Below the pieces are notes generated by a model. It ran no database searches. It was not told where the DNA came from and saw only the letters and a list, made by a program, of their open reading frames with translations. Made by a program: the position numbers and the translations under genes. Positions 1 through 3,555 of a stretch of DNA of 3,555 bases are shown here, one piece after another (the first letter of the stretch is position 1; every line of letters begins with the position of its first letter). The stretch is from IMG/VR virus record IMGVR_UViG_2529292921_000021; one strand, 5' to 3'. The stretch is from a virus (Duplodnaviria > Heunggongvirae > Uroviricota > Caudoviricetes).

Positions 1-276
1 ATGGCGGGTTATTTGTCCGGGTTATTCCCCCGTTGTAAAATCTCTCCTAAACTTAACGGTACGGCACCACACTTCGGGGATGAAATGTTCGCGCTGGTAC
101 TTTTTGTTTGCTACCTGGATGGCGGTTGTGAAGATATTGTTGTGGATGTCTACAACACGGAACAGCAGTGTCTTTATTCTATGAGCGATCAACGGATCCG
201 CCATGGCGGTTGTTTTCCGATTGAGGATTTTATAGATGGTTTCTGGCGACCTGCACAGGAGTACGGTGATTTTTAA
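1..276 (+). CDS. yebW: YebW-like small protein of unknown function; ORF is open from the ATG at position 1 (91 codons), but the conserved part and a better ribosome-binding site suggest the real start may be the internal ATG at 85 (63 aa)
   Basis: Frame-1 ORF ending in TAA at 274..276. The C-terminal 63 aa (MFALVLFVCYLDGGCEDIVVDVYNTEQQCLYSMSDQRIRHGGCFPIEDF...) matches my recollection of E. coli YebW, which sits immediately upstream of pphA and is convergent with it. GGGGA lies 4-8 nt upstream of the ATG at 85. Nothing upstream of position 1 is visible, so the long form cannot be evaluated. Confidence 0.6.
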   Translation: MAGYLSGLFPRCKISPKLNGTAPHFGDEMFALVLFVCYLDGGCEDIVVDVYNTEQQCLYSMSDQRIRHGGCFPIEDFIDGFWRPAQEYGDF

Positions 277-933
277 TTATTGCAATTGCACAAGAGTCAG
301 TTCTCCCCCAAAGACAGCACCGGTATCAATATAATGCAGGTTGCCAATATCCACGCGATGGCGCAAAGGTGTATGACCAAACCAGAAATGATCAGCACCT
401 GCAATTCCCTGCCCTTTTTGGCGTTCACCTAATCGCGAGCGGCTCCACAAGACCTGATGCAAATCGACGTCCTTTTGCCATTCATAGACATCATCTGGAT
501 AATCGGCATGAGCAATAACATGTTTGCCGGTGCGACTGTGTAATTCAAGAATAAAGGGCAAATGCTGACATTTTTCCAGCGCCGTTTTCGCTTGTTTCTG
601 TTGATTATCTGCCAGCGCAATAAACCAGTCGCCGCCATTTATCAACCATAAAGACATCTGCCGGGATGCCAGCGCATCCATCGCCATCTGTTCATGATTG
701 CCTCTTACCGCACGAACCCAATGTTGTTCCAGTAACTGCAGGCAACGTAAACTTTGCGGCCCACGATCGATAACGTCTCCCACTGAGATAAGTAAATCTC
801 GCCACGGATCAAAACGACAATGCCATAATTTGCGGCGCAATTGCTCAAGACAACCGTGTATATCGCCTGAAAGCCAGATATGTCGCCATTGATGACCCGC
901 AATTCTCTGATAAATGGGCGCAGGCTGTTTCAT
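277..933 (-). CDS. pphA: Serine/threonine-protein phosphatase 1 (lambda-phosphatase-like metallophosphoesterase)
   Basis: The ORF track gives 277..936 because it accepts the TTG at 936; the only ATG is at 931..933, giving 218 aa starting MKQPAPIYQRIAGHQWRHIWLSGDIHGC... GGAGG sits 12 nt upstream of that ATG on the - strand. Metallophosphatase motifs are visible in the translation (GDIHG, GDVIDRG, GNHE, GHTP). Near-identical, from memory, to E. coli PphA/PrpA. Confidence 0.9.
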   Translation of the reverse strand: MKQPAPIYQRIAGHQWRHIWLSGDIHGCLEQLRRKLWHCRFDPWRDLLISVGDVIDRGPQSLRCLQLLEQHWVRAVRGNHEQMAMDALASRQMSLWLINGGDWFIALADNQQKQAKTALEKCQHLPFILELHSRTGKHVIAHADYPDDVYEWQKDVDLHQVLWSRSRLGERQKGQGIAGADHFWFGHTPLRHRVDIGNLHYIDTGAVFGGELTLVQLQ

Positions 934-1067
934 CAATATTTTCCTCCCGCGCTAAAGATCACATAATCTTAACAAGAATGTTAAAAAACGCTGGACTCAG
1001 ACAGTAGAGTGTGTGTTATGGTTGACTATAAAGTCAGCGAAGGGAATGCTTCTGGCTTTTAACAGAT

Positions 1068-1100
1068 AAAAAGAGACCGAACACGATTCCTGTTTTCGTC
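1068..1100 (-). ncRNA. sdsR: 3'-terminal remnant of the SdsR/RyeB small RNA (terminator hairpin plus U-tract); probable junction/att core of the inserted element
   Basis: The - strand of 1068..1100 reads GACGAAAACAGGAAUCGUGUUCGGUCUCUUUUU. This matches, with about 3 differences, the 3' end of SdsR as I remember it (GACCGAAUACAGGAAUCGUAUUCGGUCUCUUUUU). The position (about 130 bp beyond the pphA start, same strand as pphA) fits the known pphA-sdsR/ryeA-yebY arrangement. The sequence on the 5' side of the RNA (coordinates above 1100) does not resemble the SdsR body, so only a fragment is present. Identification is from memory. Confidence 0.35.
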
Positions 1101-1397
1101 AACAAACAATAAACCCTTTTTAAATTAATTTGTTAAGCAAAATTACGCTCATCTTTTAATCCCAAACACGTACCATTGCATATTAATGCATTCAATTAGT
1201 TACCATTTTTTTCGAGTTTTTTAGAGAAAATTTCGGGACTATTTCAGACCAATCCAGGCAGAAATAAGCAATCCCTATATTGAATGATTCCGCAACAATT
1301 ATGTAAAATCACCTCCGGCTGATTTTCATTCAAACTCGCGCTATCGAACGTCCATCAGCCAGCCGTGGCACGTTCTTGCATACGACGTGCTACGGTT

Positions 1398-1951
1398 TCA
1401 TTTATCTCCGACCGGAAACTTCTTATACAAAGTCGATACGCCAACATCATAAATGATCGCCACCTTCTGGCGAGGAACTCCTGATGCAATTAGTCGCCCG
1501 GCCTGCGCCCATTGTTCTGGTGAAAGTTTGGGACGGCGACCGCCAATTCGTCCCTGTGCGCGAGCAGCTTCCAGTCCAGCTTTTGTTCGTTCAACAATCA
1601 GTTCACGCTCCATTTCAGCCAGGGCCCCATCACATGAAAGAAAAAGCGCCCCATTGGGGTACTGGTATCAATTGAATCCGTCAGACTACGAAAGTTGATG
1701 CCTCGTTCGCGCAACTCCTCCACCAGCACGACAAGATGCCGCATACTGCGCCCCAGTCGGTCCAGTTTCCAGACCACCAGCGTATCACCTGCCGATAATG
1801 TCCTGAGCAGTTTTTTCAGTCCCGGCCTTTCGGACTTTGTACCGCTTATCTTGTCTTCAAAAATCAGCTCGCATCCTGCACAGTTCAGCGCATTACGTTG
1901 TAGATCTGTGTTCTGGTCATTTGTTGACACACGTACATAGCCAATAAGCAT
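1398..1951 (-). pseudogene. pin: Gin/Pin/Hin/Cin-family serine DNA invertase, disrupted by a 1-nt frameshift in a G/C homopolymer at about 1622..1628
   Basis: Two adjacent - strand ORFs (1598..1987 and 1398..1613) in different frames together give a full invertase. The N-terminal part is MLIGYVRVSTNDQ... (catalytic Ser in the YVRVS motif) ...MGRFFFHVMG, then frame is lost (PWLKWSVN*). The second frame continues (A)LAEMERELIVERT...GRIGGRRPKL...YDVGVSTLYKK, the helix-turn-helix C-terminus. From 1398 to 1951 is 554 nt, one short of 555 (184 aa plus stop). The true start is the ATG at 1949..1951, with GGGGGA 7 nt upstream; the extra 12 codons in the ORF track are an artefact of an upstream in-frame ATG. 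Confidence 0.8.
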
Positions 1952-1977
1952 GGTAGATCCCCCTGACAAAAGCAGGA

Positions 1978-2550
1978 ATGATGCCATTTGCTCGTTATTT
2001 CTGCATTTTCATAAACGTTGGTTTGGGAGAAGGTGCTCCAGCTATTGGCGTTCCGTTCTTCTGGCCGTCCGCCGCAATGCCAAATACTGTAATCGACAGT
2101 TGGTCCAGCATGGTGTTTTTGAAGTTCAACGGCGCGAAATTCTCTGCCACTGATTACCCTGTGCTGGCGAAAGTGTTTCCGGCGCTGGCATTACCTGACG
2201 CACGCGGTGATTTCATTCGTATCTGGGATGACGGACGCGGGATTGATGTCGGACGTACCCTACTTTCAGGGCAATCACACACAATTATGGATCATGCACA
2301 CAATATGGAATTGTGGACGGGGGACGGGCTTGTCGCAGGAAGTACACGGGAAGGAGTAAACCCAGGAATACTGGCTACATATGGTGACGGGGGAATAGTT
2401 AAAACGGACGAACCCGGTCTTAGGGTGCCTTCCTCACTACGAGCTATTAGCTCTCGTAGCGTTAAACGTTATGGTGAAATTAGTGGAAATGTAGGTACAG
2501 AAACCCGCCCACGAAATATTGCATTTAACTTTCTAGTGAGGGCTAAATAA
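1978..2550 (+). CDS. Tail-fibre C-terminal variable cassette (alternative receptor-binding end, Sv'-like); probably not an independent gene in this orientation
   Basis: 190-aa ORF; the frame is open from 1957, directly after a TAG. It contains a phage tail-collar-type motif (...FNGAKFSATDYPVLAKVFPALALPDARGDFIRIWDDGRG...; LPDARGDF at 2191..2214). There is no convincing ribosome-binding site at the correct spacing (AGGA is only 2 nt before the ATG). It begins at the candidate crossover site and is followed, with a TAATG overlap, by a tail-fibre assembly gene, as stfE/tfaE are in e14. Confidence 0.65.
   Translation: MMPFARYFCIFINVGLGEGAPAIGVPFFWPSAAMPNTVIDSWSSMVFLKFNGAKFSATDYPVLAKVFPALALPDARGDFIRIWDDGRGIDVGRTLLSGQSHTIMDHAHNMELWTGDGLVAGSTREGVNPGILATYGDGGIVKTDEPGLRVPSSLRAISSRSVKRYGEISGNVGTETRPRNIAFNFLVRAK
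2006..2031. other. Candidate invertase crossover site (gix/hix/cix-like 26-bp imperfect palindrome) marking the proximal boundary of the invertible segment
   Basis: TTTTCATAAACGTTGGTTTGGGAGAA agrees with the Mu gixL site as I recall it (TTCCTGTAAACCGAGGTTTTGGATAA) at 18 of 26 positions, including the AAAC / GGTTT arms around a central dinucleotide. It lies 55-80 bp from the invertase start and inside the first codons of the tail-fibre cassette, where such sites sit in Mu, P1 and e14. The match is to remembered consensus sequences only. Confidence 0.4.
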
Positions 2551-3143
2551 TGAAACCTGTTTTTGATGAAAATGGGCTGGCTACAGTACCGGGTAATATG
2601 CGTTGTTTTTATTATGAGGCAGTTACGTATGAATATACTGGCTGGTCTGATGAATATATTAATACTGGCGTAAGTATGCCCGCTTGTTCCACTGGTATTG
2701 ACCCGGGCGAATACATTCCGGGAAGAGTGGCAGTATTTACGGGTAAGGGATGGAGCCATGAAGAAGACCACCGCAATGAGACTGTTTACTCAATCGAAAA
2801 TGGCGCAGCTGTTACAGTGGATTATATCGGTGCCATCAAAGACGGTTATGTCACGCTTTCACCGTTAACGCCATACGATAAATGGGATGGTGAGAAATGG
2901 GTGACGGATACCGAGGCACAGCATAGCGCCGCAGTAGAAGCGGCAGAAGCACAGCGCCAGTCGCTGATTGATGCTGCAATGGCTTCCATCAGTCTGATTC
3001 AAATGAAATTACAGGCTGGGCGGAAGCTGACGCAGCCAGAAAACACCCGACTTAACGCTGTGCTGGATTACATTGACGCGGTGACGGCAACAGATACCAG
3101 CACAGCGCCGGACGTCATCTGGCCTGAACTGCCGGAGGCGTAG
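2550..3143 (+). CDS. Tail-fibre assembly protein (Tfa / Mu U / P2 G family)
   Basis: 197-aa ORF whose start overlaps the stop of the upstream cassette by 1 nt (TAATG), with GAGGG 9-13 nt upstream. The C-terminus (...LDYIDAVTATDTSTAPDVIWPELPEA) carries the conserved Tfa C-terminal motif (DTSxAPDxxWPxxP) remembered from TfaE/TfaR, Mu U and P2 G. Confidence 0.85.
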   Translation: MKPVFDENGLATVPGNMRCFYYEAVTYEYTGWSDEYINTGVSMPACSTGIDPGEYIPGRVAVFTGKGWSHEEDHRNETVYSIENGAAVTVDYIGAIKDGYVTLSPLTPYDKWDGEKWVTDTEAQHSAAVEAAEAQRQSLIDAAMASISLIQMKLQAGRKLTQPENTRLNAVLDYIDAVTATDTSTAPDVIWPELPEA

Positions 3144-3555
3144 GCCATTCAATATCTGGCGCACCGGAAGTATCGACCAGTTCCAGTGCGTCCAGATAAT
3201 CCAGCCACAAATTATATTGCGCCAGTTCCTCACCTTTCAGCCGGCCAATAGCCGCTTTACCAGGCCATTGTTTACTGTTCATATAATCGTTGGCCTGATT
3301 AATCAGTTGCTGCTTTTCCAGTTCGGCTGCAGCAATCTGTTCCTCATGTGTTGGTGGTGGAATTTCAGACCATGCAGGAAAACCATTTTCTCCAGCGATA
3401 CGGATTTTTCCTTTCGGCGGTAATCCGGAAAACTCAATATACACTTGCTCATCAACTTCAACAGCATCATCTGGCCATGAGTCAGCTTGAGTGTAATCCT
3501 CTTTCATCTCCAGCGGATAGAAAGAGTTTGTAGTCGCGGAATATATGTAATTCAT
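3115..3555 (-). CDS. Tail-fibre assembly protein (Tfa family), second copy, convergent with the first
   Basis: 146-aa - strand ORF starting at the ATG at 3553..3555 (the last three bases of the window) and ending at 3115. The C-terminus (...LDYLDALELVDTSGAPDIEWPTPPAVQAR) has the same Tfa motif. It overlaps the 3' end of the + strand tfa by 29 bp. Its ribosome-binding site and the expected upstream tail-fibre gene lie outside the window. Confidence 0.85.
   Translation of the reverse strand: MNYIYSATTNSFYPLEMKEDYTQADSWPDDAVEVDEQVYIEFSGLPPKGKIRIAGENGFPAWSEIPPPTHEEQIAAAELEKQQLINQANDYMNSKQWPGKAAIGRLKGEELAQYNLWLDYLDALELVDTSGAPDIEWPTPPAVQAR

Follow-up and report, generated by a model that had tools for sequence, protein, structure and literature searches.

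A Pin-type serine DNA invertase gene, carried by a prophage in the sdsR/ryeA locus adjoining pphA, has very probably undergone a genuine and recent loss-of-function mutation. The preliminary description of this DNA had proposed that one invertase of the Pin family was inactivated by a single-base frameshift, and the split reading frames, together with a one-base gap relative to intact alleles, confirm this. The window, i.e., the whole stretch of 3,555 nucleotides that was analysed, is identical to the reverse complement of the end of contig AIEW01000031.1 of E. coli strain DEC1B (GCA_000249075.2), bases 379-3933. Its features are as follows:

1-1098: core chromosome, with 98.2% identity to K-12 by alignment
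1-276, plus strand: yebW-like ORF, chromosomal
277-933, minus strand: pphA, chromosomal
up to 1098: initial part of the ryeA/sdsR small-RNA locus, placed by the K-12 alignment (yebW-pphA-ryeA/sdsR)
1099..1397: prophage-side DNA, from the junction (~1098/1099) to the invertase stop codon; the K-12 alignment ends at 1098
1398..1951, minus strand: Pin/Gin-type serine DNA invertase pseudogene, 554 nt compared to 555 nt in the intact gene, by alignment to intact pinE
1598..1951, minus strand: 5' ORF with a 117-aa product (109 native residues with Ser9, then PWLKWSVN and a stop), identical to EHU15134.1
1619..1630, minus strand: frameshift site ATGGGGCCCTGG; the base is absent between 1626 and 1625, where intact genes have T (GGT) or G (GGG)
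1398..1613, minus strand: 3' ORF of 71 aa (the remainder of helix E, the arm and HTH_7), in a different frame from the 5' ORF and identical to EHU15133.1 of DEC1B
2006..2031, minus strand: invertase-proximal 26-bp crossover site TTCTCCCAAACC-AA-CGTTTATGAAAA, which encodes N-V-G-L-G-E in the tail-fibre frame
2014..2550, plus strand: alternative C-terminal segment of the tail fibre, silent and S'v-like, with an open frame between the crossover site and its stop, and called 'phage tail protein' in relatives
2550..3143, plus strand: tail-fibre assembly gene of the silent segment, 197 aa, intact (PF02413 Caudo_TAP, E=5e-27)
3115..3555, minus strand: opposed tail-fibre assembly gene, 146 aa, intact (PF02413, E=8e-38); its partner fibre end lies beyond the window

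Chromosomal setting of the prophage

Homology to K-12 extends as far as position 1098, where it has covered 31 nt of the 3' end of sdsR, and prophage DNA lies beyond. The insertion point is the bidirectional ryeA/sdsR (ryeB) locus adjoining pphA (window 1030-1099). A statement in PMC7380047, citing Balbontin 2008, describes an insertion hot spot with an attachment site within the last 23 bp of ryeB, and the junction in the window agrees with this published location. The same pphA/sdsR junction is occupied by a prophage in 228 of the 5,426 complete E. coli genomes (~4%), and baseplate and tail genes (gp53-like, DUF2612, baseplate J) neighbour the junction in complete genomes with a prophage there. 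A search of the whole window against Rfam at gathering thresholds returned no family; the remnant of sdsR on the window side comprises 31 nt only. On the chromosomal side, the open frame of the yebW-like ORF has 91 codons and 91 aa are called in two assemblies, whereas the RefSeq yebW gene is 192 nt long (63 aa) in K-12 and other strains. The two lengths look like a matter of start-codon choice rather than a difference in sequence.

The frameshift and its reading frames

The coding strand at window 1630-1619 reads ATG GGG CCC TGG (ATGGG-GCCCTGG). The 129-aa ORF of the minus strand, 1987..1598, ends in ...FFFHVMGPWLKWSVN*, and a second ORF, 1613..1398, begins with MERELIVERT and ends with GDK. 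The 5' ORF runs from MLIGYVRVST to FFFHVMG and continues as PWLKWSVN and a stop, the frame being broken after Gly109 (codon 109/110). In comparison with the intact pinE genes of E. coli 104, DEC5A, AH19B041 and K-12, the sole difference in length is one base after ATGGG. Most intact relatives, including the e14 pinE of K-12, read ATGGGTGCCCTGG at this point; the others, a minority, read ATGGGGGCCCTGG, with GGGGGCCC (GGG-GCC, G5C3), which occurs in at least 17 complete genomes and in CFS3292. The lesion had originally been placed in a GGGG run, yet relative to most intact alleles the base absent from the window is the T of GGT (GGGTGCCC). The run is thus partly a product of the deletion, since most intact relatives have GGT.

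The 129-aa ORF was rejected as the product, since the start used by homologues and gene callers is located 12 codons further on, at the internal MLIGYVRVST, which has GGGGGA 6 nt upstream. The earlier picture of a 129-aa catalytic domain without its helix-turn-helix (HTH) therefore stands with respect to the missing HTH, but the product is 117 aa long, and most of helix E is absent from it as well. Three contigs, each from a different source, encode precisely this 117-aa product. It matches the Resolvase family PF00239 (E=6e-39) over profile positions 2-118 of 145 only; the break, at profile position 118/145, falls inside the C-terminal helix of the catalytic domain (helix E) and not between domains, with the last ~27 positions lost; compared with Gin and gamma-delta resolvase, it presumably lies close to where this helix begins. 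The HTH_7 domain is confined to the separate 71-aa ORF, which has no good Shine-Dalgarno sequence and a 16-nt overlap with the stop of the 5' ORF, and no single frame runs continuously through the catalytic domain, helix E and HTH_7. A search against NCBIfam gave only sub-threshold matches to other serine recombinase models. Judged by its sequence, the gene in the window is a pseudogene of the Gin/Hin/Pin/Cin family and not a functional member of it.

The insertion of one base after ATGGG produces an ORF of 184 codons, which contains both PF00239 (profile 2-144 of 145) and PF02796 HTH_7. The restored protein is identical to PinE of K-12 e14 at 178 of 184 residues (97%), and can be aligned over its whole length (residues 1-181, E=1e-93) with Mu Gin, as seen in structures 3uj3 and 4m6f, with the catalytic Ser9 of its YVRVS motif opposite Ser9 of Gin in 4m6f. 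On the strength of these restored domains, the colinearity with Gin and the identity to PinE, the 5' and 3' ORFs are the halves of one invertase and not chance neighbours. The preliminary description, which had predicted that an added base would restore a 184-aa protein and had conceded that an alignment might reveal two unrelated ORFs, is thus upheld on the first count, and the alignment shows two halves of a single invertase on the second. No further lesion occurs in this pin: its other differences from intact alleles add no stop or frameshift, and the substitutions relative to the nearest intact allele are mostly synonymous. The gene accordingly reads as a young pseudogene, with a single clean 1-nt loss and without secondary damage.

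The roles of helix E and of the DNA-binding arm are established for Gin, Hin and gamma-delta resolvase. The loss of one base at codon 109/110 leaves 109 native residues followed by eight wrong residues and a stop; the HTH domain is out of frame, and most of helix E (the dimer/tetramer interface) would be lost together with the DNA-binding arm. The truncated fragment is predicted to be unable to dimerise, to bind the crossover sites or to catalyse inversion. Since it could neither bind nor synapse these sites, the tail-fibre segment would have lost the enzyme of its own that flips it. The remainder of the element appears fresh, in that the repaired ORF is clean, the proximal crossover site is complete, and the silent fibre end and both assembly genes are open.

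Alternative explanations

The possibility of a sequencing error had been raised at the outset: the gene would be intact in the cell, and a base would have been dropped from a G/C-rich run of a draft assembly. DEC1B is indeed a draft, and it is not error-free everywhere, as the end of the contig, 1.9 kb away, carries several small indels (at least six relative to an intact homologue). Furthermore, intact GGGGGCCC alleles exist, which a homopolymer under-call would convert to the sequence of the window. The identical G4 lesion is present, however, in the same chromosomal context in GCA_053258415.1, an independent assembly of a close relative, whose contig covers positions 1-2099 of the window together with 8.4 kb of further chromosomal sequence and differs from DEC1B by five substitutions and no gaps over 10,502 bases. 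The same shortfall appears in a Logan contig from another run, SRR22784600, in a pin gene with 10 substitutions, another 5' leader and another tail-fibre segment. Moreover, the nearest intact alleles have GGT, and hence the loss of a base there would not be a change in homopolymer length. A systematic error common to GCA_053258415.1 is conceivable in principle, despite the different isolate and project, but an artefact is very unlikely, because the lesion is identical in an independent assembly with no gaps over 10.5 kb. A different suggestion would accept the sequence and keep the enzyme: a -1 ribosomal slip on G GGG could yield low levels of the wild-type MGALAEMEREL..., in which case the switch would be slowed rather than dead. 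Shifted by -1, ATGGGGCC again presents GGG, followed by GCC, so that such a slip regenerates the native sequence, and the four-G run permits perfect re-pairing of the P-site tRNA-Gly in the -1 frame, making a trace of full-length protein conceivable. The site has no X XXY YYZ heptamer, however; CCC cannot re-pair on GCC, and P-site re-pairing alone would be possible. No frameshift stimulator was detected downstream of the G-run, where the 93-nt fold of -20 kcal/mol (z=+0.64) was equalled by 149 of 200 shuffles, and the site thus combines neither the slippery heptamer nor the downstream structure of programmed -1 frameshifting. The G4 allele is, in addition, rare and not conserved, and recoding is an extremely improbable account of this gene.

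The mutation may also be viewed as one state of a recurrent indel hot spot, either a G5 <-> G4 on/off toggle or a change templated by ATGGGGC, which would be reversible and favoured by selection or mutation bias. The alleles were surveyed in the 5,426 complete E. coli genomes with a 50-mer centred on the junction and so designed that any 28-mer seed within it covers this point. The G4 allele was found in one genome (CM2010-0578/1) and G5 in at least 17, and eight other inspected alleles carried GGT in four cases and G5 in four. The pin gene of CM2010-0578/1, which also lies at the pphA locus and carries the annotation 'frameshifted', has the 1-nt shortfall and is 40 substitutions away from the window; it differs from its intact twin in CFS3292 by G4 as opposed to G5 alone. 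The identical shortfall is therefore seen in three allele backgrounds (the window, SRR22784600 and CM2010-0578/1), as a hot spot would predict, and the mutant site ATGGGGC is the same 7-mer as one located 23 nt upstream, which, speculatively, might act as a template. These cases nevertheless allow other explanations. The window and SRR22784600 alleles are almost the same over a central block (columns 43-446), and their G4 runs may be identical by descent, a single event moved by recombination between different flanks, while the shortfall of CM2010-0578/1 could reflect either a mild indel hot spot or a homopolymer assembly error. Exact 28-mer scans for the G4 allele gave no matches in IMG/VR, GTDB representatives or JGI metagenomes, and the allele was absent from the phage and plasmid collections scanned. 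The 1-nt lesion thus appears to be rare, but has probably arisen at least twice. Phase-variable homopolymer loci typically have tracts of at least 7 nt, and both tract lengths are then frequent in the population; here the run is 4-5 nt, far below known contingency tracts, and G4 occurs in one of 5,426 complete genomes. The pin genes of other strains are, in addition, broken in quite different ways. A selected or biased toggle consequently seems distinctly unlikely, and we likewise consider it very improbable that the region of the Gly109 codon (GGGTGCCC / GGGGGCCC) is a recurrent single-base indel hot spot, perhaps templated by ATGGGGC. If a hot spot did exist, invertases would be turned off repeatedly, and possibly on again, and a slow, mutational lock would be superimposed on the switching of the tail fibre by recombination.

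An ordinary loss-of-function mutation, by comparison, has ample precedent in resident prophages. In the pphA-adjacent prophage of other strains, R1 retains a 105-bp stub of the pin HTH, CE0021a carries an internal stop, and 8178 has, in addition to a pin stub, an inserted gene for an acyltransferase. The protein collection also contains shortened forms of Pin, with 85, 153 and 162 aa, on 278, 4 and 80 contigs, respectively. Resident prophages routinely lose their invertase, and the case of the window represents a known element in a known type of decay, with no new mechanism.

The tail-fibre cassette and possible inversion in trans

The invertase adjoins an invertible tail-fibre segment, as had been proposed, and the crossover site and the ORFs of the segment are present. 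The layout is that of an invertible host-range cassette of the type of Mu G, P1 C and e14 P, with two opposed sets of fibre C-terminus and assembly gene and with the crossover site inside the fibre frame. The 26-bp site consists of two 12-bp half-sites around a central AA, an architecture which we take to be comparable to that of hix and gix sites. Its distal inverted partner lies beyond the window, where only a 15-nt arm is found (DEC1B contig-end bases 1-15), and in AH19B041 both arms are present (25 nt, 88% complementary and 1820 nt apart). The exact 146-aa tail-fibre assembly protein occurs on ~995 contigs.

The three assemblies that bear the frameshift read straight through the proximal crossover site, which is weakly consistent with a single orientation. 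Heterogeneity of orientation was rejected as the cause of the break of the DEC1B contig at the distal site, since the proximal site is read through within that contig; the break is better explained by a boundary of repeated sequence, formed by the shared constant part of the tail fibre. Two further observations concern the ends of contigs. In DEC1B, contig-end bases 1-130, which lie 250-378 bases past window position 3555, contain at least six small indels and an in-frame stop relative to AH19B041. This stretch belongs to the tail-fibre end that is now in the expressed position, the contig stopping inside the distal crossover site, and it is either poor sequence at the end of a contig or another gene in decay. 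In GCA_053258415.1, three of the five differences from DEC1B cluster in the last 27 bases of the contig (the nearest is 12 from the end), within the silent tail-fibre segment (window 2083-2099, corresponding to contig bases 1-17). This clustering suggests a repeat or variant boundary, and not ordinary divergence.

The Fis enhancer of Hin, Gin and Cin lies in the 5' coding DNA of the invertase gene. A loose scan of the window for Fis motifs gave scattered matches, with no pair 48 bp apart; by homology with pinE, an enhancer is likely to be located in the 5' region of this pin as well. Inversion by enzymes encoded elsewhere has been described in PMC12529663, which reports that PinQ and PinR act in trans on the P segment of e14, that a mutant deleted for pinE is locked, and that the Pin-driven inversion of cryptic tail-fibre segments has anti-phage roles. 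A deletion of pinE may remove the enhancer in cis, while the frameshift in the window leaves that DNA in place. A pin-like gene is detectable by megablast in ~47% of the complete E. coli genomes, with a median of one copy in those genomes and a maximum of five. As the proximal crossover site and the genes of the segment within the window are intact, the segment may still be inverted in trans and should be a substrate for another Pin-family invertase in the cell.

Comparison with known systems

The arrangement in the window most closely recalls PinE and the P segment of e14 in K-12, in which an invertase, a crossover site, a silent tail-fibre end and two opposed tail-fibre assembly genes are likewise found. 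The two differ in that the pin of the window is frameshifted, whereas pinE of K-12 reads ATGGGTGCCCTGG; e14 resides at icd and the prophage of the window in sdsR/ryeA by pphA, and their variable tail-fibre segments are different. Gin of phage Mu, which acts on the G segment, is colinear with the restored protein over residues 1-181 and shares the Ser9 motif and the FFFHVMGALAE stretch that contains the break, yet its identity to the restored protein is ~80%, compared to 97% for PinE. The pinH gene of K-12 is another annotated invertase pseudogene. As in the other decayed pin genes of E. coli prophages, which have suffered stops, deletions and frameshifts, the remnants of the tail fibre persist here, although the allele of the window, unlike those, shows a single clean 1-nt loss and no secondary damage. 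The trans-inversion of the e14 P segment by PinQ and PinR (PMC12529663) shows that an invertible segment of this type can be driven by the invertases of other prophages within one cell, a scenario which the preliminary description had raised.

Implications

The present analysis bears first on annotation: the deposited proteins EHU15134.1 ('resolvase N-terminal domain') and EHU15133.1, which is labelled 'HTH domain of resolvase', are best taken together as a single frameshifted pseudogene of the pinE type. Beyond annotation the significance is small, and no new question is opened. The locus nevertheless illustrates cleanly how the decay of a prophage begins, in that the switch enzyme has been lost and the switched cassette is still intact. 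With an invertase that is dead in cis beside such a cassette, the strain could serve as a natural test of trans-acting invertases.
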